This document shows, piece by piece, positions 1-32,754 of a stretch of 42,294 nt of DNA. The DNA comes from Welwitschia mirabilis. Its lineage: Eukaryota. The notes under the pieces are model-generated. The model worked only from the letters and a program-made list of their open reading frames with translations, made no database searches and was not told the DNA's origin. A program made the position numbers and the translations under genes. Where the stretch lies: assembly GCA_051453625.1 (NCBI GenBank), contig JBOZIK010000001.1:42897092-42939385 (forward strand). Reading direction: 5' to 3'. Numbering within the stretch: position 1 is the first letter of the stretch; each line of letters begins with the position of its first letter.

Positions 1-23
1 TTTATAGGGTTCTCGATCTATCA
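1..23 (+). repeat. 3' end of LTR0 (truncated by the window start)
   Basis: tagggttctcgatctatca matches the ends of the other LTRs (e.g. ctagggttcttgatcctatca at 24436-24456) and is followed by the PBS. Confidence 0.85.
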
Positions 24-25
24 TT

Positions 26-36
26 TGGTATCAGAG
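26..36 (+). other. Primer-binding site (tRNA-iMet), unit 1
   Basis: TGGTATCAGAG, 2 nt after the LTR-terminal CA; the canonical plant copia PBS. Confidence 0.9.
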
Positions 37-89
37 TGTAGGTTAGTCTTTGAGAGATTTTTATATATCTAGACTTAAGAGCCATAAAA

Positions 90-2186
90 ATGAGTAAACT
101 GACTAATAGATTTTTAATTAGTCATCCATCCATGTTCGATGATTCAAACTATGCCTATTGTAAATCTAGGATGAGAATCTTTCTTAGATTCCTCGATTCC
201 AATGTAGAGGAAGTTATATACAAATGTCATACCATGTCTAAGATAACCCAAACAGATGCAAATAGCAAGACTACCTTAGTCCCAAAATCCCAAGACTAAT
301 GGACTTCCATAGATAAATCAAAAGCCACTATTGATGCCAGTGCTCTTAATGCTATTTTTTATGCAGTATGTGTAGATGAATTAAAAATAATCATGAACTA
401 TAACTGTGCGAAGAAAACTTAGGATATTTTAAAAGTTGCATCTAAAGAAATATCCATTGTTAAACAAGAAAAACTATAAATTCTTATTTCTAAATTTAAA
501 GATATTCATATGAATGATGAAGAAACCTTGAAGGAATTTTTTGCTAGACGTACAGATATAGTGAACTTAGTGACAAGCCTCGAAGAATGCAAGAAAGAAA
601 GCGAGGTGGTAAAGAAAGTGTTGAGATCCCTATCCAAGAGATTCAAACCAAAGGTAACATCCATTAAAGAAAGTAAAGACATCCATCCAATGGTATTAAA
701 AGAACTTCAAGATAATCTTTAAATCTATGAACTTAAGTTTACTAAAGATAGAAGAAAACGTATTGCTTTGAAATGTGTATAGGAGAATTACAAATCTAAC
801 AGATCAGATGAAGAACTCGATGACGATGAAGTGGCTCTTCTAGCCAAGTATTTCAAAAGATTTCTCTATAGGAAAAAGGAAGGAAAACCAAGTAGGAATC
901 CAAGGAGAAGCAACCCAAAACAAAGAAAAAAGCAAGAAAAGGGAAAGAAAATCTAGTGCTATTCATGCAGAGGGTTTAGACATATGGTCAACAAATGTCC
1001 CAATACTAGAAGAGAAAATAAGAAACCTAAAAACACCTTATTCATGATAACTTGGAATAATGAAGATAATGAAGATGAGAAAATCTATTCAGACCATAAA
1101 TTAGACAAAGATAGGAGATTATTTTTCATGGCTCTAGTACCATCACTGAAAATGTACCTAGTACTTCAATACCTAATAATTTGAATATGATTAATAAAGA
1201 GGAATATAAGCTAGAAGACACATGTCAAGAGTTGTATGAAGAATGTGAAAAGCTTACCAAGAGAATCAATGAGTTAAATAAAAGAGTGAAAACTATCACA
1301 AAGAATAAGAAGGAAGTGAAAGAGAAATGCAATATGCACAAATCTGATAACATCATTTTAACTACTCAGGTAAATGATATTTTATTCTTTGTAAGTAAGT
1401 CTTCTGGTAGTTTATCTAAATTGGAACAGATGCTTGAAATACAAAAGTTAAATGGAGGCAAATCAAGTATTGGTTTTAGAGCATAAATATCATGAAAATA
1501 GGTAAATCAAATAAGTAGGTATGTGCCTAATCTTTTGTATAATTTTTGTGGTAGGTTTGGTCATTATAAATCTTTTTGCAAAGTTAGACAGTTGATGCTT
1601 TTTTCTAAAAATGTAAACTTATTATCTTTTAAATTTATTCCTAAGAAAAATGCACCACTAAGTTAAATAAGACTAAATGGGTTAAAGCTAATAATCTTAA
1701 AAGCTTTATGACACAGATAAATTTTAGAGGATCACAATTAAATAGTTGATATCTAAATAGAGGTTGTTCAATGCATATGATAGGAGATAGATCAAGCTTT
1801 CAAAACTTAAAGAGTATAAATAGAGAAGAAGTCATTTTTGGAAACAACAAAACAGCAAAATAGAAGGTACAGGAAGCATCAAATGAGGTATGTCATCTAA
1901 CCTTGATAATGTACTTTATATAAATGGTTTATAGCATAATTTATTAAGTATTAGTCAACTTTATAATAAAGGGTATAGAACAATCTTTGATAAGTCAAAA
2001 TGCATAGTTGAGAATGAGAAAATAAATGTTGTTATTTTTAGAGAAAAACATATTGATAATACTTATAGACTAGATGTTAAAACTCTTTATCAATTATTTC
2101 ATGTAAACCAACATTTTAGGAAAGGTTTTGATAAAACTAAATCTTATTCTATTAAATTTGTTAAAACCCCAAGTTCTTGCAATTAA
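90..2186 (+). pseudogene. gag: Unit 1 gag-protease pseudogene (copia gag, zinc knuckles, aspartic protease; no IN/RT/RH)
   Basis: HPSMFDDSNYAY..RMRIFL N-terminus; VVKKVLRSLSKRFKPKVTSIKESKD (UBN2-type gag); CYSCRGFRHMVNKC knuckle at 957-998; decayed WYLDSGCS near 1747-1770; NLLSISQL motif. Many stops and frameshifts. Confidence 0.88.
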
Positions 2187-2239
2187 TTTAACTATTATAA
2201 AAGTGATCTAAAGGCCAATACAAAATTCCTTAGCTAATT

Positions 2240-2601
2240 GTAGGGTGGTTGACAAGATTTATGATTTGGTCAACCAGATGTGGTCGGTTAACTAGCTTGA
2301 GAGCCTAATTGCACATACCCCTTTTAGTACTACAGATCCATGTCTCCACAGATCGATCAGAACATTGAGTGGTCGATCAGACCTGACAGATTATAGTGTG
2401 AAAGTATAGTTAATGAACCCAATTTCTTTCTCAAATATGCTCTATTTCCTTTAATCTATAAAAGAGATAGAATCTTAGCTTGTTTTTATTATGATTTAGT
2501 GCCTTTTAGCTCTCACATTTAGTGCTTTTCTCTCAAGATCTAGAGTTCTTATTTTCAGATCCAGTATTTTTCTTAGTTCTTATTCTTTCAAGGATCTTAG
2601 A
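2240..2601 (+). promoter_or_regulatory. Putative internal promoter of the env-like ORF (equivalents at ~9240-9601, ~15110-15465, ~20900-21266)
   Basis: About 5 decayed GGTCGACCGG motifs, then CTATAAAA (2456-2463; also 9456, 15327, 21122), then a CT-rich leader ending at the ATG about 140 bp later. Conserved in all four units. Confidence 0.55.
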
Positions 2602-3641
2602 ATGGCTGCAAGTTCTTCCAAGAGAAGAGGAAAGGAAGTTACTTCAAGGTAACCTTACTAATTCTATCAAGAAATATCTAAAGAAGACATTGACAAGTTT
2701 TTTAATAAGTTTGAGAATAAAGTTATGTGTCAAGAGTGATCTATAGTCATATCAAAACTTAGGAAACTCAAGAAAGTCATCCAGCTCTTGAAAGATCAAG
2801 ATCTAGACCACTTCTTAGATGTTTTAGGTCCTACTTATTCTTTTCTTACTAGAATGTTTTATTATAATGCTTTTTTTAACCATGATTCTAGAACTCTTAA
2901 AACCCTTATTTTGGGTAAGAGGTTGAGAGTAATAACAAATCTTATCTCTTAGCTAACTAATTTTCCAATAGGAAACTATGAAGATTTTTACCCTACTGGA
3001 GATACCATGGAAGACAAGCCAGCAGTTACTAGAGAGCTTTGTGGTAAAGTAAATTCTTGGAAGCACACGTTATCTACTTCCTTATTGACTTTTAAATATT
3101 ATTTCATCCATGTGATCTTTACTTATAGCTTTTTTTCTTTAGTTGGCCATCGTGATGAGGCCTCCTACTACTGAGCATATTTGATGTATTTAGTAGGTAC
3201 AAAGCATTCCATTGATGCTTCTGCTATAATACTGAAAAATATGGCCTCATAGCTAGAGTACCACAGAACTAAGGCTTTACCCTCTTCTATACTTATCACC
3301 AGTATTTGTTGTTATTTTCATGTTAATATTCATCCTAAGTTGGAATCGCTTCAGCCTATGTCATCCATTGGGTGTGTGACTTTGTCTTGCATGCATATCT
3401 TTGCCCCTCCAAGAAATCCCCTTCTAAAACTCTAAAGAAAGCATCTTCAGATGAGACTCTTTCATATCTATAGCAGATTGAATCTCACACCAGATACATA
3501 AAAGAAGCCTTCATTACAGCTGGATATAACATTGTAGATACCTTAGCTGAGGCTATTAGCTCTACTTGTACTAGAGGAGATGAAGAAGATTCAGAGGAAT
3601 AATCTAAAAAGGAAGAAGAAGAGGAGGAAGAATTAGATTAA
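2602..3641 (+). pseudogene. Unit 1 env-like / extra ORF pseudogene (Sirevirus 3' ORF, Transposase_32-like motifs, acidic tail)
   Basis: ATGGCTGCAAGTTCTTCC start. Cross-unit consensus motifs YPFLxRMFYxN, YLMYLVGT.HSIDA.AIILKNM, ALPYSILITSIC.YFHV, and terminal EEEEEEELD*. Lies between the pol remnant and the PPT. Confidence 0.75.
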
Positions 3642-4112
3642 GCTTTCTTGTCTTTTCAGGTTATGTTGTGTTATTCTCTTTTTTGCTTTTGTTATCAAAA
3701 AGAGAGATTTGTGCTTATTTGTAAAATGTTTTAGATGTATGCTCTTGATGAAAAATTTTTATTCTTCAGCTAGAATCCTTGTAATGATTTGTTTCTTTAA
3801 TAAAAATTAGTTATATGTTTGAGCATAATCTTTGCATTATTTGGTGTTTCTCAGTTTGTAGCATAAAATTTTATTGTGCCTATTTTTGGAAAGTATTAAA
3901 TTTATTATCTCAATTAAAGATGAACAAAAATATGTGTATCTTTAAAATTTATGATTGTATCTGATCACATCTTACATTATTATTTGATATCATTGTGTTT
4001 TCTCGATTTGTGCATTTTCAAAACTTTCTACATTTAAAATCTCAAAAATGTTGTCTTTTCAAAATGCCTAAATGTGTACCAAATTCTTAAATTATCATTG
4101 TTTATTCATTTG

Positions 4113-4791
4113 NNNNNNNNNNNNNNNNNNNNNNNNNNNNNNNNNNNNNNNNNNNNNNNNNNNNNNNNNNNNNNNNNNNNNNNNNNNNNNNNNNNNNNNN
4201 NNNNNNNNNNNNNNNNNNNNNNNNNNNNNNNNNNNNNNNNNNNNNNNNNNNNNNNNNNNNNNNNNNNNNNNNNNNNNNNNNNNNNNNNNNNNNNNNNNNN
4301 NNNNNNNNNNNNNNNNNNNNNNNNNNNNNNNNNNNNNNNNNNNNNNNNNNNNNNNNNNNNNNNNNNNNNNNNNNNNNNNNNNNNNNNNNNNNNNNNNNNN
4401 NNNNNNNNNNNNNNNNNNNNNNNNNNNNNNNNNNNNNNNNNNNNNNNNNNNNNNNNNNNNNNNNNNNNNNNNNNNNNNNNNNNNNNNNNNNNNNNNNNNN
4501 NNNNNNNNNNNNNNNNNNNNNNNNNNNNNNNNNNNNNNNNNNNNNNNNNNNNNNNNNNNNNNNNNNNNNNNNNNNNNNNNNNNNNNNNNNNNNNNNNNNN
4601 NNNNNNNNNNNNNNNNNNNNNNNNNNNNNNNNNNNNNNNNNNNNNNNNNNNNNNNNNNNNNNNNNNNNNNNNNNNNNNNNNNNNNNNNNNNNNNNNNNNN
4701 NNNNNNNNNNNNNNNNNNNNNNNNNNNNNNNNNNNNNNNNNNNNNNNNNNNNNNNNNNNNNNNNNNNNNNNNNNNNNNNNNNNNNNNNNNN
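4113..4791. other. Assembly gap (679 N)
   Basis: N run; the homologous stretch in unit 2 (about 11105-11222) is only ~120 bp. Confidence 0.99.
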
Positions 4792-4799
4792 AATTCTTG

Positions 4800-4993
4800 A
4801 TGTCAAAGGAGGAGAAATGATAGTACTTAGAAATGATAGTATTTTACTCTTTACTTGAATGTGTATATTCCGTAATGAAAAGAGGAGTTTTGATTCTTAA
4901 TGTATGATTAAAAGTATTTAGTGAATGAGCTTAAAACTATTCATATTTTTTGAAATCACTTAATTGTTTACCATCATTATCAAAGGGGGAGAT
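4800..4993 (+). other. Multiple polypurine tracts, unit 1
   Basis: tgtcaaaggaggag (4801), atgaaaagaggag (4875), and terminal caaagggggagat (4981-4993) abutting the LTR. Confidence 0.85.
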
Positions 4994-6400
4994 TATTAGA
5001 TTATATTTGCAAGTGATGTTAAATTAATTTCTCTTATATAGTGGAAAAATATTATATCTTTTCTACAAATGAGATTAAGTTTTGCAGGTGAAAGAATTGA
5101 ACCAAAATGCACTAGAGAAACTACTAAGTTATGTTAACCTCCAGTGGGGGTCAACTAGATACTAAAGGGATCACCTACACCTGAAGCAGTTGCAAAGAAA
5201 TGAAATAAATCCAGAGGGGTTGACCGGATTCTTATGAGGTCAAATGAACCTATAACCAGAAGAATCAGTGTTCTTGAATCAAATGACAAGGGGTCAACTA
5301 GATGCTTATGGGGTTGACTGGATTTGAGGACCTAACAGATAGTAGTTTCAGATCGAGAGACAAGGAATTGATCGAATCCAGAATTGGATCAACCAAACTG
5401 GGGTTAACTAGATCCAAATGTGGTTGACCAGTCTTGGAGACATAAAAACTTGGGACCATCAAAGTCTTCTCTTGGGTGACCTATGTAATTCATGGCACCA
5501 TATGTGGTCAACCAGATTTTTCTGGGGTTGATCGAATAGCACAGAAAAGAAATTTATCAAAATATCATGTAGTCATTTCCTAGCCATTATCTAGCAGTTT
5601 TCTAGCTATTTATAGCCATTGGAGGTGCAATTCATTTATAATAAATTCTAATAACCTTTTATTATAAATAGCTAGGTAATATATGATCTAGAGATCATTT
5701 GGCACTATACCATTTTGTCATAATCATTGTGGATCTAAAATATCAAGTTGTATTTCTATTGGCATATCATTGTATTTCTTCACATCTGATAGAGAATATC
5801 TATCTTTGGCAAAAGAGCTTTATTAAGAATTATATCTAAGAGCTTCATCACTATGATCTATTAAAGAAGAGATTTATTTATTGTACTACTACTAAATGTG
5901 TAATATCTCAGCAATCAAGGCATCATCATTTCATCACATTCATTGCTTCTAATGGTTGAGACTTAGCCTACAAAAGTCCATTATTAAGGTTGAGAATTAA
6001 CCTGCAAAAGTCCATAGTTAAGGTTAAGACTTAGCCTACAAAAGTCCATTGTTAATATTGAGACTTAGCCTATAAATATTTGCTTGTAAGGATTATATGT
6101 GAACCTAGTAAAATCTATGAAGTAATAGAGATCCAAGATCAAGCTTAGAAGAAGCTAATTGTTGAGAGTGGAGTAAGGGAGTTCTTGAATCACTATAAAT
6201 CCTACATGCATCAAAATGCATAGTTTGTGCTTTTTTGTCTTTTTATTCTTTTCTTATAGTTTTTCAATTTTATATGTACATTCTTGATTCCATTATTTTT
6301 TATATGCAAACTATGATTAGATAGTATTAATTTTGTTTTAAGCATAAGTTTTTTGAACGAACCTATTCACCCTCCTCCTCTAGGATTCTCAATCCTATCA
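4994..6400 (+). repeat. Shared LTR1 (~1407 bp)
   Basis: Starts TATTAG (decayed TGTTAG) after the PPT; GGTCGACC cluster ~5145-5540; TATAAATA 5663-5670; 34-bp repeats; ACCTATTCACCCTCCTCCTCTAG; ends TATCA followed by PBS. Confidence 0.92.
5952..6078 (+). repeat. 34-bp tandem repeat (~4 copies) inside each LTR (also ~12382-12510, ~18256-18385, ~24003-24135)
   Basis: Unit AAGGTTGAGACTTAGCCTACAAAAGTCCATTATT, read directly in all four full LTRs. Confidence 0.9.
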
Positions 6401-6402
6401 TT

Positions 6403-6414
6403 TGGTATTAGAGC
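6403..6414 (+). other. Primer-binding site (tRNA-iMet), unit 2
   Basis: TGGTATTAGAGC (one C>T change). Confidence 0.85.
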
Positions 6415-6466
6415 ATAGGTTAGTATTTGAGAGATGTTTACAGATCTAGACTTAAGAGCCCTAAAA

Positions 6467-9187
6467 ATGAGTAACTCAACTAATGGATTTTTAACTGGTC
6501 ATCCACCTATGTTTAATGATTCAAACTATGCCTATTTGAAAACTAGGAAGAGAATCTTTCTTAGATCCCTAGATGCCAATGCAAAGGAAGTCATATACAA
6601 AGGTCATACCATGCCAATGATAACCCAAATAGATGCAAATGATAACACTACCTTAGTTCCCAAATCCTAAGACCAATGGACTCCACAGATAAACTAAAAG
6701 CCATTGTTAATGCTTGTGCTTTTAATGCTATTTTTTGTGTAGTATGTGCAAATGAATTTAAAAAATCATGAACTATAACCATGAAAAGGAAGCTTGGGAT
6801 ATTTTAGAAGTTGCACATGAAGCAACATCCATTAAAAACAAGCAAAACTACAAATGCTTATTTCTAGATTTAATGATATTCAAATGGATGATGAAGAAAC
6901 CTTGCAAAATTTTTTTGCTATACTTACAGATATAGTAACCTCAATGGCAAGCCTCAAAGAATACATGGAAGAAAGTAAGGTGGTAAGGAAAGTGTTGAGA
7001 TCCCTACCCAAGAAATTTGAACTAAAGGTAACAGCCATCGAAGAAAGAAAAAACATCAATGCAATGGCATTGAAAAAACTTCAATGTAATCTTCAATCCT
7101 ATAAACTTAAGTTTACTAAAAATAGAAGAAAAGGTATTACTTTGAAATGTGTACAGCAGGATTACAGATCTGACAGGTCAGATGAATAACTCATTAACAA
7201 TGAAGTGGCTCTTCTAGACAAATGTTTTAAAAGGTTTTTCTACAAGAAAAAGGAAGAAGAACCAAGTAGGAATCCAATGAAAAGCAATCCAAAACAAAGA
7301 AAAGAACAAGAAAAGGGAAAGGAAATTCAGTACTATTCATGTATAAGGTTTGAACATATGGCTAACAAATGTCTTAGCACTAGAAGAGAAAACATGGAGC
7401 CTAAAAACACCTCATTCATGATAACTTAGAATAGTAAAGATGATGAAGATGAATAAANNNNNNNNNNNNNNNAGTAAAACTTCAAATGCTTATTTCTAAA
7501 TTTGAAGATATTCATATGGATGATGAAGAAACCTTACAAGAATTTTTTGCTAGACTTATAAATATAGTGAACTCAATGGCAAGCCTTAAAGAACGCATAA
7601 GGAAAGGAAAGCGCTAAGGAAAGTTCTAAGATCCCTACCAAAGAGATTCAAATAGAAGTTAACAACCATAGAATAAAGTAAAAACATCAATGTCATGGCA
7701 TTGGAATAACTTTAAGGTAATCTTCAAAACTATGAGCTTAAGTTTACTAAAAATAGAAGAAAAGGTATTACTTTGAAATGTATGCAGGAGTACTACAGAT
7801 TAGATAGGTTAGATGAAGAACTTGATGTCAATGAAATGGCTCTTCTAGCCAAGCGATTTAAATAGTTTTTTTATAGGAAAAGGAAGAATAATCAAGTAGG
7901 AATTCAAGGAGAAGCAATTTAAAATAAAGAAAGGAGCAAGAAAAGAGAAAGAAAATCTAGTGCTATTCATACAAAGGATTTGAACCTATGACCAACGAGT
8001 GTCCCAACATAAGTAGAGAAAAAAGGAAGTCTAGAAACTCTTCATTCATAGCAACCTAGGATAATGAAGATGATGAAGATGAGAAGAACTACTCAGATTA
8101 TAAATTAGACAGAGATAGTGGTTATTTTTTATGGCTCTAGTACCATCACTCAAAAATGTGCCCAGTACTTCAATACCCAATGATTTAGATATGATTAATA
8201 AAGATGAAGATGAGATAGAAGATACATCTCAAGAGATGTATGAATAATATAAGAACCTTACTAAGAGAATCAATGAGTTAAACAAAATAGTGAAACTATT
8301 ACAAAGGAGAAGAAGAAAGTGATAGAGAAATGCAATGTGCTCATATCTAATAACATCATTTTAACTACCTAGGTAAATGATTTTTTCATTTTAAGTAAGT
8401 TTTCTAGTAGTTCATCTAAATTGGAATAGATACTTGGAATATAAAAGCCAAATGGAGACAAATCAGGTATTGGTTTTGGAGCACAAATATCATGACAATA
8501 GGTAAATCAAACAAGTAGGTATGTACCTAATATTTTATGTAATTTTTATTGTAGATTTGATCATTCTAAACCTTTTTGCAAAGTTAGAAAGTTGATTCAT
8601 TTTTCTGAAAATTTGAACATATTACCTTTTAAATTTGTTTCTAAGATAAATGCACCACCTAAGTCAAATAAGACTAAGTGGGTTAAAGCTAACAATCTTA
8701 AAAGCTTTGTGATACTGATAAATTTTAGAAGATCACAGTTAAATAATTGATATCTAGATAGTGGTTGTTCAATACATATGATAGGAAATAGATCAAGATT
8801 TCAAAACTTGAATAGCATAAATGAAAGAGAAGTAATATTTGGAAACAACCAAATAGCAAAAAAGAAGGTACAGAAAGCATCAAAGGAGGTATGTCATCTA
8901 ACCTTGATAATATACTTTATGTAAATGGTCTACAACACAATTTATTAAGTGTTAGTCAACATTTTAATAAAGGGCATAGAATAATCTTTGATAAATTAAA
9001 ATGCATAGTTGAGAATGAGAAAATAAATGTTGTTATTTTTAATGCAAAACATATTAATAATCTTTATAGATTAGATGTTAAAACTCTTTATCAATTATTT
9101 CATGCAAATCAGCATTTTAAGAAAGATTTTAATAAAATGGAATCTTATTCTATTAAATTTGTTAAAACCTCCAATTCTTACAATTAA
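6467..9187 (+). pseudogene. gag: Unit 2 gag-protease pseudogene, with a ~615-bp gag segment represented twice across a 15-N gap
   Basis: GHPPMFNDSNYAY; VVRKVLRSLPKKFELKVTAIEE; *YLDSGCS at 8748-8771 (catalytic DSG retained); NILYVNGLQHNLLSVSQ. Bases 6841-7457 are repeated with divergence at 7473-8087. Confidence 0.88.
7458..7472. other. Assembly gap (15 N) joining two different unit copies
   Basis: N run; the sequence after it restarts ~615 bp earlier in the unit. Confidence 0.95.
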
Positions 9188-9601
9188 TTAAACTATCATA
9201 AAAGTGATCTAGAGGTAAGTACATCTCTCTTGGCTGATTGTTGGACAATCAACTGGATCTATGATTTGGTTAACCAATTGTAATTGGTTGACTGGCCTAA
9301 GAGCCTGATTGCCCAGACCCATTCTAGTACTTCAGATCCATGTCTCGATAAATCGACAGGAACTTTGAGAAGTTGACTGGATTTGACGGATTAAAATACA
9401 GAATTATAGTTGGTAGACCTAATTTATTTCTCAAATCTTCCCTATTTTCTTCAATCTATAAAAAAGATAAAACCCTAACTTGTTTTTATTATACTCTAGT
9501 TTATCCTAGCTCTTAGATCTAGTGCTTTTCTCTTAAGATATAGAGTTCTTTTTTTTAAATCTAGTATTTCTCTTAGTTCTTCTTCTTTTAAGGCTCTTAG
9601 A

Positions 9602-12832: not shown

Positions 12833-12834
12833 TT

Positions 12835-12846
12835 TGGTATCAGAGC
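12835..12846 (+). other. Primer-binding site (tRNA-iMet), unit 3
   Basis: Perfect TGGTATCAGAGC. Confidence 0.92.
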
Positions 12847-12898
12847 ATAGATAAGTCTCTAAGAGATTTTTACATATCTAGACTTAAGATCCCTAAAA

Positions 12899-15058
12899 AT
12901 AAGTAATCCATTTTGAATTAATCATCCACCCTATTCGATGGTTTAAACTATACATATTGGAAAGCTAGGATGAGAATCTTTCTTATATTCCTAGATGCCA
13001 ATGTAGAGGAAGTCATATACAAAGATCATACTGTGCATATGATAACTCAAACAGATGCAAATGGCAATACTAACTTAGTCCCCAAATCCAGAGACCAATG
13101 AACTCCCATAGATAAATAAAAAGCCACCATTAGTGCTCATGCTCTTAATACTATTTTTTATGCAGTATGTGTAAAAAAATTTTAAAAAATCATGAACTAT
13201 AACCATGCAAAGGAAGCTTAGAATATTTTAGAAGTTGCTTATGAAGGAACATCAATTATTAAATAAGTAAAACCATAAATGCTTATTTCTAAATTTGAAG
13301 ATATTTATATGGATGATGAAGAAACCTTGTAGGAATTTTTTGCTAGACTTACAAATATAGTAGACTTAATCGCAAGTCTCAAAGAATGCATAGAAGAAAG
13401 CAAGGTGGTAAGGAAAGTGTTGAGATTTCTATCTAAGAGATTCGAACCGAAGGTAACAACCATTAAAGAAAGGAAAAAAATTAATGCAATGACATTGAAA
13501 GAACTTAAAGGTAATCTTTAAACCTATGAATTTAAGTTTACTAAAGATAGAAGAAAAGGTATTTCTTTGAAATGTGTGCAGGAGAATTATAGATTTAACA
13601 GGTCAGATGAAGAACTCGATGACGATGAAGTGGATCTTCTAGCTAAATGTTTCAAGAGGTTTTTCTACAAGAAAAAGAAAGGAGAATCAAATAGAAATCC
13701 AAGGGTAAGCAATCCAAAACAAAGAAAATAGCAAGAAAAGGGATAGGAAATCCAGTGTTATTCATGCAAAGGATTTGAACATATGACCAAGAAATGTCCC
13801 AATACTAGAAGAGAAAATAGAAAGCCTAAAAACACCTCATTCATGGCAACTTGGGATAANNNNNNNNNNNNNNNNNNNNNNNNNNNNNNNNNNNNNNNNN
13901 NNNNNNNNNNNNNNNNNNNNNNNNNNNNNNNNNNNNNNNNNNNNNNNNNNNNNNNNNNNTAACTTGGGATAATTAAAATGATGAATATTAGAAAATATAT
14001 TCAGACCATGGACTAGATAGAGATAGGAGATTATCTTTTATGGATCTAATACCATTACACAAAAATGTTCCCAGTACTTCAATACTCGATGATTTGAATA
14101 TGATCAATGAAGAAAAAGATGAGTTAGAAGACACATGTCAATAGTTGTATAAAGAATGTGAGAAACTCACTAATAGAATCAATGAATTGAACAAAATAGT
14201 AAAAACTATCACAAAGGAGAAGGATGAAGTGCAAGATAAATGCAATGTGCTCAAATCTGATAACATTATTTTAACTACTCAAGTAAATGATCTTTCATTT
14301 TTTGTAAGTAATTGTTTTAGTAGTTCATCTAAATTAGAATAGGTGCTTGGAATACGAAAGCCAAATGGAGACAAATTAGGTATTGGTTTTAGAGCACAAA
14401 TATCATAAAAATAGGTAAGCCAAATAAGTAGGTATGTGCCTTATCTTTTGAGCAAAGTTAGACAATTGTTGTTTTTTCTGAAAATGTGAACTTATTATCT
14501 TTTAAATATATTCCTAAGAAAAATGCATCACCTAAGTCAAATAAGACTAAGTGGTTAAAGCTAATAATATTAAAAGCTTTCTGATATAGATAAATTTTAG
14601 AGCATCATAGTTAAATAGTTGATATCTAAATAGCAATTGTTCAATGCATATAATAGAAGATAGATCAAGCTTTCAGAACTTGAAGAGCATAAATGGAGGA
14701 GAAGTCCTTTTTGGAAACAATCAAATAGTAAAAATAGAAGGTATAGGAAGTATTAAAGGAGGTATGTTATCTAACCTTAATAATGTAATTTATGTAAATG
14801 GTTTATAGCACAATTTATAAAGTATTAGTCAACTTTATAATAAAGGGCATAGAATAATCTTTAATAAATCAGAATGCATAGTTGAGAATGAGAAAACAAA
14901 TGTTGTTATTTTTAGTGTAAAACATATTGATAATACTTATAGATTAGATGTTAAAACTCTTTTTTAATGATTTATTTAAATCAATATTTTAGGAAATATT
15001 TGATAAAATTAAATGTTATTCTGTTAAATCTGTTAAAACACCTAGTTCTTGTAATCAA
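12899..15058 (+). pseudogene. gag: Unit 3 gag-protease pseudogene (start codon ATG>ATA; includes 100-N gap)
   Basis: Collinear with units 1, 2 and 4; CYSCKGFEHMTKKC knuckle near 13756-13797; second knuckle region deleted near 14450; 3' end approximate. Confidence 0.86.
13860..13959. other. Assembly gap (100 N, probably unknown size)
   Basis: AACTTGGGATAA occurs on both flanks, so the flanks overlap in unit coordinates. Confidence 0.97.
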
Positions 15059-15465
15059 TTTAACTGTCATGAAAGTGATCTGGAGGTCAGTACCTTATCC
15101 CTTGGGTGATTATAGGGTGGTCAGCCAAATTTATTATTTGGGAAACCAGATGTGATTAGTCAATAGGACTGAGAGCCTAGTTGCTCTGAAACCTACCATT
15201 ACTGCAAATCCATGTCTCAACAAATTGACCAAACTTTAAGCAGTCGATCAGACCTAATGGATTATAGTGTAGAAGTATAGTCAGTGGATCCAATTTCTTT
15301 CTCAAATCTACCCTATTTCCTTTAGTCTATAAAAGATATGGAACCCTAACTTGTTTTTATTATGCTCTAGTACCTCTTAGATCTAGTGCTTGTCTCTTAA
15401 TATCTAGAGTTCTTATTTTCAAGTCTAGTATTTTTCTTAGTTCTTCTTCTTTTAAGGGGCTTATA

Positions 15466-16506
15466 ATGGTTGCAAGTTCTTCTAAGAGAAGAGGAAATAA
15501 AGCTACTTCAAGGGAACCTTCCTAATTCTACCAAGGAATGTTTGAAGAAGATATTGACAAGTTCTTTGATAAGTTTGAGAAGAAAGTTATGTATTAAAAG
15601 TTATCTGTCGCCACATCAAAACTTAGAGAACTCAACAAACTCATCTAGCCCTTGATAGATCAAGATCTAGAGCATTTCTTAGACATTTTAGGTATTGCTT
15701 ATTCTTTTCTTACTAGAATGTTTTATTGCAATGCTTATTTTGAATATGATTCCAAGACTTTTGAAATCCTTATTTTGGGTAAGAGGTTGAGAGCTATAGA
15801 AAATATTATCTCTCTACTAATTGATCTTTCAAGGGGATACTATGAAGAGTTTTAACCTTACTAGAGATACCATGGAAGATAAGCCAATAGTTATCAGAGA
15901 GCTTTGTGATAAACTACATTCTTGGAAGCACATGTTATCTACTTTTTTATTGATTCCTAAATATCATTTCATCCATTTGATCTTTACTTATAACTTTATT
16001 TCTTTAGTTGGCTATCATGATAAGGCCTTCTACTATTGAGCATATTTGATGTATTTAGTACGTATAGAGCATTTCATTAATGGTCCTATTATAATACTAA
16101 AAAATATGTCCTTATAGCTAGAGTATCATAGAACTAGGGCTTTGTCCTACTCTATGCTTGCACTAGTATCTATCTCCATTTTTATGTTAATCTTCATCCT
16201 AAGTTGGAATCTATTCATTCTATATTACCTATTAGGTGTGTGAATTTGTCTCATATGCATACATTTTCCCTCTCTAAGAAATCCCCTTTTGAAACTTCAA
16301 AGGAAGCATCTCCACATAAGATTCTTTTATATCTAAAGCAAATTAGCTCCTACACTAGACACATCAAAAAAGCCCTCATCACAACTGGATATCACATTGC
16401 AGATACCTCAACTGAGGCTACCAGCTCTGCTCATACTGGAGGAGATAAAGAAGATTTAGAGGAAGAATCTAAAGAGGAAGAAGAAGAAGAGGAAGAATTA
16501 GATTAA
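15466..16506 (+). pseudogene. Unit 3 env-like ORF pseudogene
   Basis: ORF fragments 15652-15855 (AYSFLTRMFYCNAY), 15821-16039 and 16204-16506 (...EEESKEEEEEEEELD*). Confidence 0.78.
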
Positions 16507-17296
16507 AATTTCTTGTCTTTTCAGATTTTGTTATATTGTTCTCTCTTTTTCTTTTGTTATCAAAAAGAGAGATTTGTGCTTCTTTTTAAAATGTTTTAGA
16601 TGTATTCTTTTGATGAGAACTTTTTATTTTTCATCTAGAATCCTTGTAATGATTTGTTTCTTTAATGAAAATCAGTTATATATTTGAGCATAATCTTTGC
16701 ATCATCTAGATTCCTGAGTTTGTAGCATAAAATTTTATTGTGCCTATTTTTAGAAAGTATTAAATTCATTGTCTCAATTGAGAATGAATCAAAGTATGTA
16801 TACCTTTTAAATTTATAATTATATCTGATAACATCTTATATTATTATTTAATATCATTGTGTTTTCTTGATTTATGCATTTTCAAAACCTGTTACATTTA
16901 AAAGCTAAAAAAATGTTATCTTTTTAAAATGCCTAAATGTGTATCAAATTCTTGGAGTATCATTATTTATCATTTGGTATCAAGATAGGAGAAGAATGAT
17001 TATTGACATTTGCTATCATATATTTAAGTTTTATACTTAATTACCATTGATGTCAAATGGGAAGAGAAGATTCAATGTTCTTTCAAAATTTTTTGATTCT
17101 TGATGATAAAGGGGAAGAAATAATAGTACTTACAAATGATAGTATTTTACTCTTTTCTTGAATGTGTATATGCCTTAATAAAAGGGGGAGTTTTAATTCT
17201 TAATATGTGATTAAAAGTATTTAGTGAATGAGCTTAAAATTATTCAAATTTTTTTAAATGACTTAATTATTTTCCATCAATGTCAAAGAGGAAGAT

Positions 17297-18712
17297 TGTT
17301 AAATTATATTTACCAATTGATGTCAAACTAATTTCTCTTTTGTAGTGTAGAAATGTTATATATTGTGTGTAAATAAGATTGAGTTTTACAGGTGAAATAA
17401 TTGGACCAAAATGCATTAGAAAAACTACTAAGTTATGTTAACCTCTAGTGGGGGTTGACTAGATACTAAAGGAATCAATTGCACCTAAAGTAGTTGCAAA
17501 GAAAATAACTGAACCTAGAGGAGTTGACCAGAATCTTATGAGGTCACCCAAACATATAACCTAAAGAATCAGTGTTTCTAGACCAAATGAAAAGGGATCA
17601 ATTGGATTTTTATATGGTCCACCAGATTTAAAGACCTAACAGATAGTATTTTCAGACTAAAAGGCAAGGGGTTGATTGGATCTAGGATGGAGTCGACTGG
17701 ACTAGGGTCGATCAAATCCAAATGGAGTTGACCAAACTTGGAGATGTAAAAAACTAGAGTGACTTATGTCTTCTCTCGAGTAACTTGTGTAATTCACGGT
17801 ATCATATGGGGTTGACCGGAGTTTTGTGGGGTTAACTGGATAGCACAGAAAAGAAATTTATCAAAATGTTATGTACCAGTTTCCTAACCATTACCTATTC
17901 ATTTTATAGCCATTTATAGCTGTTGGAAGTGCAATTCATTTATAATAAACCCTAATAGCCTTTTATTATAAATAGCTAAGCAATAGATGACCTAGAAATC
18001 TTTTGGCACTATTCTATTTTGGCATAATCATTGTAAATCTGAAAGATCAAGTTGTACTTTTATTAGCATATCATTATATTACTTCACATCTGATTGAGAA
18101 GATCTATCTTTGACAAAAGCACTTCACTTAGTATTAGATCTAAGAAGTTCATCACTGTGATCTATTAGAGAAGAGCTCCATTCATTGTACTACTACCAAA
18201 CATGTGATATCTGAGTAATCAAGGCATCATCATTTTATCACATCCATTGCTTCTGGAGGTTGAGACTTATCCTACAAAAGTCTATTATTAAGATTGAGAT
18301 TTAGCCTATAAAAGTCCATCATTAATATTAAGACTTAACCTATAAAAGTCCATCATTAAGGTTAATACTTAGCTTATAAAAGTCTATTTGTAAGAGTTAT
18401 AGATGAAGCTGGCAAAACCTATGAACTAACAAAGATCTGAGATCAAGCTTAGAAGAAGGTAATCGTCAAGAATGGAGTAGGGGAATTTCCGAACCACTAT
18501 AAATCTTATGTGCATTAAAATTGGTAGTTTGTGATTTTCTGAGTTTGATTCTTTTCTTAAGTTTTCCAATTTTGTATGTACATTCTTAATTCCATTACTT
18601 TTCATATGAAAACTATGATTAGATAGTGTTAATTTTATTTTGAGCATAAGCTTTTAAAAGAATCTATTCACCCCCCCTCCCCCCTTTTCCCTCAAGGTTC
18701 TTGATCCTATCA
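17297..18712 (+). repeat. Shared LTR3 (~1416 bp)
   Basis: TGTTAA after the decayed PPT caaagaggaagat; AAACCCTAA 17947-17955; TATAAATA 17967-17974; C-rich end; TATCA followed by PBS. Confidence 0.92.
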
Positions 18713-18714
18713 TT

Positions 18715-18726
18715 TGGTATCAGAGC
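18715..18726 (+). other. Primer-binding site (tRNA-iMet), unit 4
   Basis: Perfect TGGTATCAGAGC. Confidence 0.92.
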
Positions 18727-18763
18727 ATAGGTTATTCTTTGAGTGGACTTAAGAGCCCTAAAA

Positions 18764-20853
18764 ATGAGTAACCTGACTGATGGATTTTCAACTAGTCATC
18801 CACCCATATTTGATGGCTTAAACTATGCCTATTGAAAAGNNNNNNNNNNNNNNNNNNNNNNNNNNNNNNNNNNNNNNNNNNNNNNNNNNNNNNNNNNNNN
18901 NNNNNNNNNNNNNNNNNNNNNNNNNNNNNNNNNNNNNNNNNNNNNNNNNNNNNNNNNNNNNNNNNNNNNNNNNNNNNNNNNNNNNNNNNNNNNNNNNNNN
19001 NNNNNNNNNNNNNNNNNNNNNNNNNNNNNNNNNNNNNNNNNNNNNNNNNNNNNNNNNNNNNNNNNNNNNNNNNNNNNNNNNNNNNNNNNNNNNNNNNNNN
19101 NNNNNNNNNNNNNNNNNNNNNNNCATCCACTGTTAAATAAGTAAAACTGCAAATGCTTATTTCTAGATTTGAAGATATTCATATGGATGATGAAGAAACC
19201 CTATAGGAATTTTTTTCTAGACTTACAGATATAATAAACTCAATGGCAAGCCTCATAGAATGCATGGATAAAAGCAAAGTGGTAAGGAAAGTATTGAGAT
19301 CCCTATCCAAGAGATTTAAACCAAAGGTAATAGCCATCAAAGAAAGCAAAAACATTAGTGTAATGGTGTTAGAAGGACTTCAAGGTAATATCCAAACCTA
19401 TCAGCTTAAATTTACTAAAGATAAAAGAAAAGGTATTACTTTGAAATGTATGCAAGAGGATTACAGATCTAATAAGTCAGATAAAGGACTCGATGATGAT
19501 GAAGTGGCTCTTCTAGCTAGGCATTTTAAAAGGTTTCTTTACAGAAAAAGGAAGGAGAACCAAGTAGGAATCCAAAGAAAAGCAACCCGAAACAAAAAAA
19601 AGAGTAAGAAAAGAAAAAGGAAATCTAGTGCTATTGAAGCAAAGGGTTTGAATATATGGCTAATGAATGTTCCAATACTAGAAGAGAAAATAGAAAGCCT
19701 AAAAACACCTCATTCAAGGTAACTTGGAATAATGAAGATGATGAAGATGAGAAAATCTATTTAGACCATGGATCAGATAAAGATAGGAGATTATCTTTGA
19801 TGGCTCTAGTACCATCACTTAAAAATGTGTGCAGTACTTCAATACTCGATGATTTGGATATGACCAATGAAGAGGAATATGTGCTAAAAGACACATGTCA
19901 AGAGTTGTATGAAGAATGTGAGAAACTTACTAAGAGAATCAATGAGTTAAAAAAAATACTAAAAACTATCATAAAGGAGAAGGAGGAAGTGGAAGAGAAA
20001 TGTAATTTACTCAAATCCAATAACATCATTTTAATTACTCAGATCAATTATTTATCATTTTTTGTAAGTAAGGTTTTTAGTAGTTCATCTAAATTGGAAC
20101 AGATTCTTGGAATATGAAAGCCAAATGGAGACAAATCAGGTATTGGTTTTAGATTATAAGTATGACAAAAATAGGTAAATCAAAAATGTACCTAATATTT
20201 TATGCAATTTTTTTAATAGATTTCATCATTCTAAATATTTTTGCAAAGTTAGACAGTTGATGATTTTTTCTGAAAATGGGAACTTATTGCCTTTTAAATT
20301 TATTCCTAAGAAAAATGCACCACCTAAGTTAAATAAGACTAAGTGGGTTAAAGCTAATAATCTTAAGAGATTTATGACACAAATAAATTTTAGAGAAGCA
20401 TAATTAAGTAGTTTGCATCTAGATATCAGTTGTTCAATGTATATAACAAGAGATAGATTAAGCTTTCAGAACTTGAAAAGAATAAACAGAGGAGAAGTCA
20501 TTTTTGGAAATAATCAAATAGCAAAAATAGAAGGTACAGGAAGCATCGAAGAAGGTATGTCATCTAACCTTGATAATGTAATTTATGTAAATGGTTTATA
20601 GCATAATTTATTAAGTGTTAATCAACTTTGTGATAAAGGTCATATAATAATCTTTGATAAATCAAAATGCCTAGTTGAGAATGAAAAAATAAATTTTATT
20701 ATTTTTAATGCAAAACATATTGATAATGTTTATAGATTAGATGTTAAAACTCTTTATTAATTATTTCATACAAATCAACATTTAAGAAAAGATTTTGATT
20801 AAACTAAATGTTATTCTATCAAATCTGTTAAAACCCCTTATTCTTGTAATTAA
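18764..20853 (+). pseudogene. gag: Unit 4 gag-protease pseudogene (includes 284-N gap 18840-19123)
   Basis: ORFs 19243-19722 (VVRKVLRSLSKRFKPKVIAIKE), 19656-20117 (coiled-coil-like), and 20413-20601 (LDISCSMYITRDR...VIFGNNQIAKIEGTGSI, copia protease). Confidence 0.88.
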
Positions 20854-21266
20854 TATACCTATCATAAAAGTGATCTGGAGGTTATACACTATCCGTTGGC
20901 TGATTGCAAGGCAGTTAACTAGAGCTATAATTTGGTCAAATAGATGTGATTGATCGGCTAGCTTGAGAGCCCAGTTGCCTAGACTCCTTCCAGTACTGCA
21001 GATCTACATCTCGATAGATCGATTAAAACTTTGAGTGATTGACAGGACCTGACGGATTATAGTATAGAAGTATAGTCAGTGGACCATATTTCTTTCTCAA
21101 ATCTTCCCTATTTCCTTTAGTCTATAAAAGAGATAGAATCCTAACTTATTTTTATTATGTTCTAGTTCCTTCTAGCTCTTAGATCTAGTCCTTTTCTCTC
21201 AAGATCTGGAGTTCTTATTTTCAGATTAGTATTTTTCTTAGTTATTCTTCTTCCAAGGGTCTTAGA

Positions 21267-22303
21267 ATGACTACAAGTTCTTTTAGGAGAAGAGAAAAGG
21301 AACACTTTAAGGAAACCTTGCTAATTCTATCAAAAAATGTCTGAAGAAGACATTGACAAGTTCTTTGATAAGTTTGAAAGAAATCTATATATCAAAAGTT
21401 ATCTGTAACCACATCATAACTTAGAGAACTTAAGAAAGTCATCCAGCTTTTAAGAGATCAAGATCTAGACCATTTCTTAGATGTTTCAGGTCCTACTTAT
21501 CCTTTTCTTACTATAACATTTTATTGTAATTCTTCTTTTGGACATGATTACAAGGCTTTTAAAACCGTTGTTTTGGATAATATTTGAGAGTAATAGCAAA
21601 TATTATCTCTCAGATAATAGATCTTCCAAGAAGAAACTATGAGGAGTTTTAGCCTATCACAGACACTATGGAAGACAAGCCAGCAGTTACCAGGGAACTT
21701 TATGGTAAAGTGCATTCTTGGAAGCACATGTTATTTACTTTCTTATTAACTCATAAATATCATTTCATCTATTTGATCTTTACTTATAACTTTCTTCCTT
21801 TAGTTGACCATCATGATGAGGCCTCCTACTACTAAGCATGTTTGATGTATTTAATAGGTATAGAGCATTCCATTAATGCTCCTGCTATAATACTAAAAAA
21901 TATGGCCTCATAGCTAGAGTACCACAGAACTAGTGCTTTACCCTACTCTGTGCTTGTCACCAATATTTATCACTATTTTCATGTTAATATTCATCCTAAG
22001 TTGGAATCTTTTTAGCCTATGTTATCCATTAGGCATGCAACTTTGTCTTGCATGCATATCTTTGCTCCCTCCAAGAAATCCCCTTCTAAAACTCTAAAGG
22101 AAGCATTTCCAAATGTGGCTCTTTCATATCTGAAGAGAATTGAATCCTGCACCAGACACATAAAAGAAGCCCTCATTGCAGCTGAATATGACATTATAGG
22201 CACCTCAGCTGAGGCTACTAGCTCTGCTCATACTAGATGAGATGAAGACGATTCAGAGGAAGAATCTGAAGAGGAAGAAGAAGAAGAGGAAGAATTATAT
22301 TAA
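21267..22303 (+). pseudogene. Unit 4 env-like ORF pseudogene
   Basis: Collinear with the other units; ORF 22019-22240; acidic tail. Confidence 0.76.
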
Positions 22304-23078
22304 ACTTTTTTTTCTTTTCAGATCATGTTATGTCGTTTTCTTTTTTGGCTTTCTTATCAAAAATAGAGATTTGTGCTTATTCATAAAATGTTTTAGATAT
22401 ATGCTTTTTATGAGCACTTTTTATTTTTCACCTAGAATCCTTGTAATGGTTTATTTCTTTAATGAAAATTAGTTATATGTTTGAGTATAATATTTGCATC
22501 ATTTGGTATTTCTCAATTTGTAGCATAAAATTTTATTGTGCCTATTTTTTAAAAGTATTAAACTCATTATATCAATTGAAAATGAACCAAAATATGTGTA
22601 TCTTTGAAATTTATGATTATATCTGATCACATCTTACATTTTTATTTGGTATCAGTGGGTTGTTTCGATTTGTGAATTTTCAAAGCTTATTACATTTAAA
22701 AGCTTAAAAATGTTATCTTTTCAAAATGCCTAAATGTGTATCAAATTCTTAAATTATCATTATTTATCATTTGGTATTAAGATAAGGGAAGAACAATTAT
22801 TGACATTTACTATCATATATTTAAGTTTTATACTTAATTTCCATTAATGTCAAAGGGGAAGAGAAGATTCAGTGTGCTTTCAAAAGTTTTTAATTCTTGA
22901 TGTCAAAGGAGGAGAAATGATAGTACTTAGAAATGATAGTATTTTACTCTTTACTTGAATGTGTATATGCCTTGATGAAAGGGAGAGCTTTGGTTCATAA
23001 TGTGTGCTTAAAATTATTTGGTAAATGAGCTTAAAATTATTTAAATTTTTTGAAATCACTTAATTATAAGGTAGAGAT

Positions 23079-24456
23079 TATTAGATTATATTTCCCAATT
23101 GATGTCAAATTAATTTCTTTTATGTAGTGTAAAAATGTTATATCTTATGTGCAGATGAGATTAAGTTTTGCAGGTGAAAGAATTGGACCAAAATGCACCA
23201 AATAAACTACTGAGTTATGTTAACCTCCAGTGGGGATCGATTGAATACTAAAGGAGTTGATCACATCTGAAGAAGTCACAATAAATGAACCAAACCCAAA
23301 AAAGTCGACTAAATTCTTATGAAGTTAACTAAACCTATAACTTCAAAAATCAATGTTCTTAGATCGAATGGCAAGGGATCGATTGTATTTTTATGTGGTC
23401 AACTAGATTTAAGAACCTGACAGATAGTAGTTTCAGACTGAGAGATAAGGGATTAACTGGACCTAAGATGGGGTCAACCAGACTAGGATCAATCGAATCC
23501 AAATGGGGTCGACTAGACTTAGAGATGTAAAAACTTGGGGTGACCAAAGTTTTCTCTTGTGTAACCTATGTAATTCACAGCACCATATGGAGTCTACCGG
23601 ATGACATAGAAAAGAAATTTATGTAAACATTATGTAGCTATTTCCTAGCCATTACTTAGCTGTTTAGAGCCATTGGAGGCATAATTCATTTGTAATAAAT
23701 CCTAATAGCTCCCAATTATAAATAGGTAGGAAATAGATGACCTAGATATCTTTTGGTACTATTGTATTTTGGCATAATCATTGTGGATCTGAAAGATAAA
23801 GTTATTTCTATTGATATATCATTGTATTGCTTCACATCTGATTGAGGAGATCTATCTTTAGCAAAAGAGCTTTACTCAGAATCAGATCTAAGAGCTTTAT
23901 CACTGTGATCTATTGAAGAAGAGCTTCATTTATTATACTACTACTGAACATGTGATATCTGAGCAATTAGAGCATCATCATTTCATCACATACATTGCTT
24001 ATAAAGGTTGAGACTTAGCCTACAAAATTTCATTGTTAAGATTGAGACTTAGCCTGCAAAAGTATGTTGTTAAGGTTACGACTTAGCCTGCAAAAGTCCA
24101 TCATTAAGGTTGAGACTTAGCTTGTAAAAGTCCGCTTGTAAGGGTTACAGGTAAATCTGGTAAAACCTATGGAGTTACAAAGATCCAAGATCAAGCTTAG
24201 AAGAAGCTGATTATCGAGAGTGGAGTAGGGGAGTTTCTGAACCACTATAAATCCTACATGCATCAAAATTAGTAGTTTGTGATTTTCTATCTTTTAATTC
24301 TTTTTTTACAGTTTTCCAATTTTGTATGTACATTCTTGATTCCATTATTTCTTATATGCAAACTGTGATTAAATAGTGTTAATTTTGTTTTGAGCATAAT
24401 TTTTAAGAAAGAACCTATTCATCCCCTTCCCCGCTCTAGGGTTCTTGATCCTATCA
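23079..24456 (+). repeat. Terminal 3' LTR4 (~1378 bp)
   Basis: TATTAG start; TATAAATA 23717-23724; ACCTATTCATCCCCTTCCCCGCTCTAG...CTATCA, followed by AATCT rather than a PBS. Confidence 0.92.
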
Positions 24457-27004: not shown

Positions 27005-27014
27005 NNNNNNNNNN
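27005..27014. other. Assembly gap (10 N)
   Basis: N run; an A18 tract lies nearby at 27041-27058. Confidence 0.99.

Positions 27015-32687: not shown

Positions 32688-32688
<1 letters not shown>

Positions 32689-32754
<66 letters not shown>
32689..32754. repeat. Compound microsatellite (GT)12(AT)21
   Basis: Read directly from the sequence. Confidence 0.97.

Follow-up and report, generated by a model that had tools for sequence, protein, structure and literature searches.

The first 24,456 nt of a 42,294-nt window of Welwitschia mirabilis DNA (the window being the whole stretch that was analysed) form a tandem array of LTR-retrotransposon units in which each adjacent pair has one LTR in common. 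Four or five decayed copies follow each other head to tail, all on the plus strand, and the unit (LTR plus internal region) measures 5.8 kb. We consider it likely that the array is real and old, that its element is a non-autonomous Ty1/copia derivative with a Sirevirus-type ancestor, and that this element was quickly multiplied from one founder, after which the copies decayed independently. The array has no present function.

Self-BLAST yields 18 direct matches of at least 200 bp (80.8-85.4% identity) at offsets of about 5.8-6.4 kb or multiples thereof. Four internal regions alternate in one orientation with four full LTRs and one partial LTR within positions 1-24456 (Table 1), a layout that can be read as (LTR)-I-LTR-I-LTR-I-LTR-I-LTR. 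At all three internal LTRs a polypurine tract (PPT) lies on the left and a tRNA-Met primer binding site (PBS) on the right; both abut the LTR edge directly, without host DNA between the units. The original prediction had claimed a head-to-tail array with shared LTRs and no intervening host DNA, and self-BLAST and the three junctions bear it out on both points; the boundaries it had placed at 4994-6400, 11425-12832 and 17297-18712 are exact. Each LTR starts with T(G/A)TTA(G/A)ATTATA, immediately 3' of AAAGGGGGAGAT or a decayed version of it, and ends with TATCA followed by TT and TGGTAT(C/T)AGAG. In the window the start motif occurs four times (4994, 11425, 17297 and 23079), as does the PBS motif (26, 6403, 12835 and 18715), each time 3 nt past an LTR end. 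Because the window begins inside the last 23 nt of another LTR, the array extends past its 5' edge. The 34-bp sub-repeat of LTR_B recurs in the other LTRs (5954-6076, 18263-18384 and 24004-24133), and its copy number differs among reads of the family (joints going back 30-35 nt). Beyond position 24456 and the adjoining AATCT, the remaining 17.8 kb are AT-rich, unrelated DNA without similarity to the units.

Table 1. Features of the array, in window coordinates
Feature	Position	Strand	Evidence or remark
Upstream LTR, 3' end, cut by the window edge	1..23	+	TCTATCA end, then TT and TGGTATCAGAG at 26; aligns to the other LTR ends
Internal region I1; PBS 26-36; N gap 4113-4791	24..4993	+	Pfam Retrotran_gag_2, Pol_BBD, Transposase_32
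Transposase_32 (PF20167) remnant in I1	2803..3324	+	env-like/additional-ORF position; 3 in-frame stops
LTR_A, 1407 bp, common to I1 and I2	4994..6400	+	motif ends, alignment
Internal region I2, composite	6401..11424	+	6401-7457 and 7473-11424 overlap by ~610 bp in element coordinates across a 15-N gap
Extra upstream PPT octamer AGGGGGAG, at -114	11311..11318	+	motif search; second such copy at 17183
LTR_B, 1408 bp, common to I2 and I3	11425..12832	+	exact Sirevirus 12-mer AGGGGGAGATTG from 11415
34-bp sub-repeat, ~3.6 copies, inside LTR_B	12383..12505	+	repeat analysis
Internal region I3; N gap 13860-13959	12833..17296	+	gag and Pol_BBD/protease matches
LTR_C, 1416 bp, common to I3 and I4	17297..18712	+	motif ends, alignment
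Internal region I4; N gap 18840-19123	18713..23078	+	self-BLAST, domain search
LTR_D, 1378 bp, terminal 3' LTR of the array	23079..24456	+	motif ends; AATCT and unrelated DNA beyond
AATCT, candidate half of a target-site duplication	24457..24461	+	adjoins the LTR_D end; partner position upstream of the window

The coding content of the units is limited to gag, protease and a Transposase_32 domain; a Pfam domain search found no remnants of integrase, reverse transcriptase or RNase H in any of the four collinear units. In I3 the gag domain (Retrotran_gag_2) matches at nt 13123-13530 (E 1.9e-15) and Pol_BBD/protease at nt 14623-14847 (E 2.8e-15), and this pair of domains is of the Ty1/copia coding type. 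All four units are non-autonomous derivatives: LTRs, PBS, PPT and gag are present and the replication enzymes are missing, as in GAG/PROT-only (TR-GAG-like) elements. Relatives retrieved in a gag homolog search are at about 35% identity or less.

The Transposase_32 match in I1 (E 3.8e-10) covers profile positions 5-176 of 177 and scores 40.4 bits, which is below the curated cutoff of 45. Two in-frame stops in this region are common to all four units. Fifteen homologs of the region were collected and PF20167 was present in all ten of those scanned; word-based homolog searches with the region gave no match. PF20167 is reported from an extra ORF in an Athila element of sunflower (PMC11728184), and in the literature searched, including passages of PMC7264820, we found no source that connects it to a Sirevirus env.

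The non-coding sequence fits the hallmarks of Sireviruses, a genus of Ty1/copia, as described by Bousios et al. 2010 (PMC2829016), from which we took our criteria, namely a PPT 12-mer, several PPTs and a 16-nt LTR/PBS junction. The terminal PPT, consisting in Sireviruses of the octamer AGGGGGAG followed by AT and the TG of the LTR, is exact at LTR_B and has one mismatch at LTR_A and two at LTR_C; at LTR_D no match was found within the two mismatches allowed in the search. PPT sites lie at -10, -114, -187 and -310 from the LTR (the -187 and -310 copies are decayed), in line with the extra PPTs that Sireviruses have within 0.5 kb of the 3' LTR (PMC2829016). The 42-kb window holds four exact octamers, each of them at position -10 or -114 relative to an LTR, and none on its minus strand. 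The junction CA-ATTGG-TATCAGAGC is matched at 15 of 16 positions at 12831 and 18711 and at 14 of 16 at 22 and 6399; the general form CA-xTTGG-TATCAGAGC and a C-rich LTR 3' end are likewise common to the array and to Sireviruses (PMC2829016). A candidate inverted repeat of 12 nt (83%) around the PPT occupies corresponding positions at LTR_B and LTR_C, which is weak given the AT-rich DNA. Its left arm stops 5 nt short of the PPT and its right arm begins 20 nt into the LTR, against about 28 nt expected for Sireviruses.

Differences with Sireviruses as described in the same source (PMC2829016) are evident too. The array has neither pol enzymes nor a CpG island nor surviving palindromic CGG-CCG boxes: each LTR contains one to three CGG and one to three CCG, and no dyad motif recurs among the LTRs. 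The CGG-CCG motifs, which in Sireviruses make up a CpG island upstream of the TATA box, may have been erased by decay. Full Sireviruses measure 10-12 kb against 5.8 kb for the unit found here (PMC2829016), and since a pol enzyme region is missing, placement based on reverse transcriptase is impossible. The Sirevirus label of the original prediction thus holds for the non-coding signatures, but the units, lacking integrase, reverse transcriptase and RNase H in all four cases, are not full Sireviruses.

The units are old and no longer active: identity between them is 80-85% (80-83% for the LTRs), and the longest ORF outside the N runs has at most 171 amino acids. K2P distances amount to 0.205-0.237 for pairs of LTRs and 0.173-0.196 for pairs of internal regions, with neighbouring units no closer than distant ones. 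Transitions outnumber transversions by a ratio of 2.3-3.7; G>A and C>T together make up 163 of the 299 singleton sites in the LTRs, and the observed/expected CpG ratio is 0.13-0.28 in the LTRs and 0.16 over the array. Considering the low GC content, we also examined an RIP-like fungal mutation process; it was rejected, as the transition/transversion ratio is only 2.3-3.7 and both the coding and the non-coding features match plant copia elements.

The relationship between the units is star-like. Sites grouping two units against two fall in similar numbers on each of the three possible splits (LTRs 30/40/32, internal regions 71/53/57) and singleton sites are far more numerous (299 in the LTRs and 830 in the internal regions). 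In maximum likelihood trees the internal branch takes up 3.0% of the tree length for the LTRs and 2.5% for the internal regions; bootstrap values are 50 and 77, respectively, and the two topologies conflict. We infer from this pattern that the array arose from one founder in a single short episode and then decayed in place. With K of about 0.22 and a general substitution rate for plant LTRs, the age of the array would be roughly 5-15 million years, and its formation would have been quick relative to that age.

At 40 listed places most reads of the family differ from the window. Two of these have the window letter in all four units, and at one further place a third letter is common to the other three units, which speaks for shared ancestry of the units within the family. 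As 32 of the 40 are private changes of one unit, they give a single founder only thin support. Moreover, random members of a family that spread in one burst would also give a star-like tree.

Taken together, the preferred origin would run as follows. The founder would have combined LTR ends of the Sirevirus type with a tRNA-Met PBS, several PPTs and a frame for gag and protease, and its Transposase_32 frame, at the env-like position, would already have been broken. Lacking integrase, reverse transcriptase and RNase H, it would have depended for movement on an autonomous relative. One copy would then rapidly have become four or more units, either by quick, repeated rounds of unequal homologous exchange in which the 5' LTR on one sister chromatid or homologue paired with the 3' LTR on the other, or by integration of multimeric cDNA. 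Afterwards sequence exchange between the units would have stopped, and each would have decayed independently, mainly through methylation-driven C-to-T changes, to about 10% per unit.

The second of these routes in its strictest form, which is a sub-case of the preferred origin, is a tentative possibility: a concatemer of at least four units of a gag-only Sirevirus derivative would have inserted in one step as multimeric cDNA. Such cDNA might stem from read-through of a one-LTR circle or of an existing tandem, or from (serial) template switching, and later recombination would not be needed. Such an origin has been suggested in plants (PMC1950507; PMC11899658) and predicts exactly the star-like divergence observed; rapid unequal exchange, however, fits the data equally. 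If the single insertion were true, the star-like divergence would be the fossil trace of that event, and the array would rank among the longest single-insertion LTR-retrotransposon multimers and be evidence for packaging and integration of multimeric genomes by plant copia elements.

Less probable is that the tandem order is unreal, dispersed copies having been strung together in scaffolding or contigs having switched copy within an LTR. The stretch contains five N gaps of irregular size, and some details give reason for suspicion. The 15-N gap at 7458-7472 is flanked by different copies of one segment of gag of about 610 bp (6841-7452 and 7473-8082, 80.7% identical): the scaffold is not self-consistent here, and the gap perhaps hides a fifth internal region. 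The 679-N gap (4113-4791) stands where about 118 bp are expected, and directly behind it begins an exact word of 77 nt that units 1 and 4 have in common. Furthermore, the family is abundant, with most mapped reads only 90-95% alike, and the deepest pile of reads falls on a highly conserved segment of about 46 nt covering the PPT and the LTR start (11394-11440).

Against such an artefact, a complete, collinear I-LTR-I junction is found in each of three separate contigs (4792-7457, 7473-13859 and 13960-18839). Exact words common to the copies are rare (11-73 of about 5,400-6,300 31-mers, the longest 35-77 nt), so that a k-mer assembler had little chance of switching copy. The 284-N and 100-N gaps are compatible with the period of the array, and no contig has host DNA at an internal LTR edge, whereas the last LTR does abut unique DNA. 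The original prediction had described each PPT-LTR-PBS junction as gap-free. This is correct as assembled, but no independent contig or read crosses a whole LTR: none was found among Logan contigs and raw reads because these are only 100-500 bp and 150 nt long. Contigs at least 99% like the stretch number 1676, 1459 and 1119 in the runs of three studies (under two organism labels), so that the private sequence of the unit is present in independent data. Only one contig matches exactly over an LTR end (12804-12908), and it reaches 29 letters into the LTR, under the threshold of 31.

Least probable appears a slow build-up of a real array, by rounds of unequal crossing-over spread over time or by neighbouring insertions merged through inter-element LTR recombination: these are classical explanations (PMC1950507; PMC13570524) and the distances between units are those that random family members would have, but nested similarity is absent, the internal branches are as short and the topologies as conflicting as described above, a few variants against the family majority occur in all four units, and independent insertions would need three precise recombinations plus the loss of all intervening DNA.

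The structure as such is not unusual. Rice, Arabidopsis, almond, cotton and sugar beet all provide well-documented cases of shared-LTR tandems, and tandem LTR retrotransposons with shared LTRs are reported to be common in plants (PMC11899658; PMC13570524). Like those described by Morales-Diaz et al. 2025 (PMC11899658), the array shows internal regions and LTRs alternating in one orientation, internal LTRs flanked by PPT and PBS without host DNA, and a location far from genes. Structures of that kind begin and end with an LTR and have one target-site duplication around the whole; the array has an LTR at its 3' end, with AATCT as the candidate duplication half. The candidate mechanisms given there, unequal recombination between LTRs or one-LTR circles that yield tandem transcripts, apply here as well; indeed the three that the original prediction had put forward (repeated unequal LTR-LTR recombination, read-through multimeric reverse transcription and rolling-circle copying of a one-LTR circle) are already discussed in the literature on such tandems. 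The rice cases are mostly Gypsy/Tekay, and 80% are polymorphic and have LTRs more than 95% identical (PMC11899658), whereas the array analysed here is a copia derivative with LTRs only 80-83% identical and is therefore a much older, fossil array.

Closer in content are the tandems of sugar beet (3 to 21 LTRs; 97 tandem copies in 38 families), which include non-autonomous elements, some retaining only GAG/PROT (PMC13570524). TR-GAG elements (Chaparro et al. 2015, as cited in PMC13570524) also combine LTRs, PBS, PPT and gag with a lack of replication enzymes, but the element found here is larger, has kept its protease and carries Transposase_32 as a second domain downstream. Two or more elements with a shared LTR also occur in template-switch complexes (Sabot and Schulman 2007, PMC1950507), Cassandra TRIM arrays (PMC7215508) and Drosophila TE tandems (PMC5932611), and tandems of TEs are regarded as seeds from which satellites arise; these systems differ in being dimers, very short elements or animal cases. 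TARE1 of tomato was rejected as the identity of the element, its LTR being 194 bp. The term macrosatellite, which had been suggested for the array, is not retained: it implies numerous units in a long array that exchange keeps similar, whereas the window (with the array continuing upstream) holds only four, possibly five, internal regions that are 80-85% alike and star-like, with no sign of homogenisation up to the array's end at 24456.

Summarizing, the array offers a clean case of an old tandem in which the units of a non-autonomous copia element share their LTRs. Structures of this kind are already well described, and no new biology follows from this one. It indicates that such arrays can stay in place over millions of years instead of being reduced to solo LTRs, and that LTR-pair dating and automated annotation of LTR retrotransposons will misread such loci. 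Star-like divergence between units can record the quick building of an array, and in this respect it provides a small piece of evidence on how tandems arise.

The self-comparison that the original prediction had proposed as a check returns 18 matches of at least 200 bp within the window, all in direct orientation and at 80.8 to 85.4% identity; their offsets are multiples of approximately 5.8 to 6.4 kb and all lie inside 1-24456. Four complete LTRs of 1378 to 1416 bp are present. Each starts with T(G/A)TTA(G/A)ATTATA directly 3' of the polypurine tract (PPT) AAAGGGGGAGAT or a decayed version of it, and each ends in ..TATCA. Directly 3' of the first three stands TT followed by TGGTAT(C/T)AGAG, well known as the copia primer site for tRNA-Met and described as such in PMC2829016. 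The primer-site motif also occurs at 26, behind the final 23 nt of an LTR truncated by the window edge. The layout is (LTR)-I1-LTR-I2-LTR-I3-LTR-I4-LTR, where I1 to I4 are the internal regions of the four units. The LTR coordinates and the description first proposed, with single LTRs serving two units, turn out to be exact. The U3-like part of each LTR also carries approximately 3.6 copies of a 34-bp sub-repeat, which varies in copy number among reads of the element family (joints going back 30 to 35 nt).

Coordinates of the LTRs and internal regions of the array
Feature	Position	34-bp sub-repeat
Internal region I1	24-4993	
Complete LTR (LTR_A)	4994-6400	5954-6076
Internal region I2	6401-11424	
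Complete LTR (LTR_B)	11425-12832	12383-12505
Internal region I3	12833-17296	
Complete LTR (LTR_C)	17297-18712	18263-18384
Internal region I4	18713-23078	
Complete LTR (LTR_D)	23079-24456	24004-24133

Five N runs interrupt the 42,294-bp window. As assembled, all three I-LTR-I junctions lie inside separate gap-free contigs (4792-7457, 7473-13859 and 13960-18839), in agreement with the original prediction. Copy-switching inside a contig is unlikely, because the units have only 11 to 73 of approximately 5,400 to 6,300 31-mers in common and their longest common exact words measure 35 to 77 nt. The scaffold itself is not flawless. The gap of 15 N at 7458-7472 is bordered on either side by a copy of one 610-bp gag segment (6841-7452 and 7473-8082; 80.7% identity), and these two are as unlike each other as any other pair of copies: either the gap hides a whole unit, giving at least five, or contig 4792-7457 is misplaced. 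A 679-N gap occupies a place where approximately 118 bp are expected. Among the public records compared over 8100-13859 (contigs of 100 to 500 bp and 150-nt reads) none bridges an LTR; one exact contig crosses 12832/12833, with 29 letters only on the LTR side. Units 1 and 4, elsewhere approximately 81% alike, are identical over 77 nt (4792-4868 and 22892-22968), beginning with the base that immediately follows the 679-N gap; this identity is probably the trace of a common k-mer node at which the assembler ended the contig.

K2P distances amount to 0.205 to 0.237 between LTR pairs and 0.173 to 0.196 between internal regions (ts/tv between units 2.3 to 3.7), and adjacent units are not closer than distant ones. 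Most variable sites are singletons, 299 of them in LTRs and 830 in internal regions, and among these G>A and C>T dominate; the three possible two-against-two splits are near equal (30/40/32 and 71/53/57, respectively). In the ML trees the internal branch takes up 3.0% (LTRs) and 2.5% (internal regions) of the tree length, with bootstrap values of 50 and 77 and conflicting topologies. CpG observed/expected is 0.16 across the array. Taken together, the distances, singletons, even splits, short internal branches and CpG loss suggest that the units split from one sequence about simultaneously and then decayed independently, like methylated silent DNA. At the substitution rate generally known for plant LTRs the array would be of the order of 5 to 15 million years old.

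Such star-like divergence would mean that four units were reached within a few percent of the array's age. The mechanisms originally put forward (repeated unequal LTR-LTR recombination, multimeric read-through reverse transcription and rolling-circle copying of a one-LTR circle) are those debated in PMC11899658, PMC13570524 and PMC1950507. The divergence is as compatible with insertion of a multimer as with unequal exchanges in quick succession, and it speaks against slow stepwise growth and likewise against a joining of unrelated insertions.

Sirevirus affinity was tested against the hallmarks listed in PMC2829016. The octamer AGGGGGAG has four copies window-wide and none on the minus strand: 10 nt before LTR_A and LTR_B and 114 nt before LTR_B and LTR_C, with decayed octamers at -187 and -310 from the LTR. 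The 12-mer AGGGGGAGATTG occurs without mismatch at LTR_B, the LTR/PBS junction 16-mer matches at 15 of 16 positions, and the inverted repeat around the PPT is weak. CGG-CCG motif boxes are not detectable in the LTRs, for which CpG loss may be the cause. The units offer no reverse transcriptase for a tree-based placement. The element behaves like a Sirevirus and, judged by these motifs, very probably descends from one, full membership being at most putative.

Outside the N runs no ORF exceeds 171 aa, and frames were translated through stops (stop = X) ahead of the domain search. Copia gag and a protease beta-barrel are detected in all four internal regions, best in I3 (Retrotran_gag_2, E 1.9e-15; Pol_BBD, E 2.8e-15). 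The same search gives no signal for integrase, reverse transcriptase or RNase H in any unit, and an internal region of 4.4 kb could not accommodate them. Hence the units belong among the non-autonomous, GAG/PROT-only derivatives treated in PMC13570524. In the gag frame one stop column, 5' of the Pfam match, is found in all four units; the remaining stops are private or in two to three units. Between gag zinc knuckle and protease (approximately 13960-14500 in I3, and equivalents) lies a coiled-coil stretch with a weak DUF1635-like match, followed by a second CX2CX4HX4C-like knuckle recognized by eye. The gag C-terminus is longer than in ordinary copia elements.

Downstream of gag/protease we find Transposase_32 (PF20167), best in I1 (E 3.8e-10; 40.4 bits, below the curated cutoff of 45; profile positions 5-176 of 177), with lower scores in I2 and I4. 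HMMER, run exhaustively with the I1 stretch as query, yields 15 proteins at E <=0.001; all 10 of these that were scanned carry PF20167 above its cutoff, and the named homologs are from Welwitschia, Acorus and Magnolia. Two in-frame stops are common to all four units, so the founder must already have carried this frame in disrupted form. An env-like origin of the domain is plausible, because PF20167 is found in an additional ORF of a sunflower Athila element (PMC11728184); a published link between PF20167 and Sirevirus env was not found in the literature. The domain, at 2803-3324 and the equivalent stretch of each unit, occupies the place of the Sirevirus env-like ORF.

Directly after 24456 follows AATCT and then 17.8 kb of AT-rich DNA (GC 0.24), in which neither similarity to the units nor an ORF above 95 aa was found. 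Within this flank (24457-42294), where CpG observed/expected is 0.14, a 66-bp segment is directly duplicated (26655-26786), and a (TA)24 microsatellite occupies 32712-32759.

Public sequence data from four runs under two organism labels were compared over 8100-13859. The family is abundant, most matching records being only 90 to 95% alike, while three studies hold 1676, 1459 and 1119 contigs at least 99% alike to the unit. At 40 positions most family reads differ from the window; 32 of these are private to one unit, at two the window letter is common to all four units, and one further position has a third letter common to the remaining three units. These few common variants against the family majority speak, if only slightly, for a founder set apart from most of the family. 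Private variants of the 8100-13859 unit occur at >=99% in runs X1/X7 and X4, labelled as two organisms; therefore either this copy is older than their split, or the labels denote very close taxa.

Overall, the observation behind the original prediction is confirmed and its interpretation in part: the tandem holds, whereas nothing supports a macrosatellite, nor a present function of the array. As a kind of structure the shared-LTR tandem is already known, and the present array is a further example. Rice, Arabidopsis, almond and cotton are documented as frequently harbouring such tandems, with 66 candidates in Nipponbare and 266 in a pangenome, 80% of them with LTRs more than 95% identical (PMC11899658); non-autonomous families of sugar beet comprise 97 tandem copies with 3 to 21 LTRs (PMC13570524). 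The tandems described so far are mostly young and polymorphic, whereas the present array is far more diverged, and its age is its only unusual feature.
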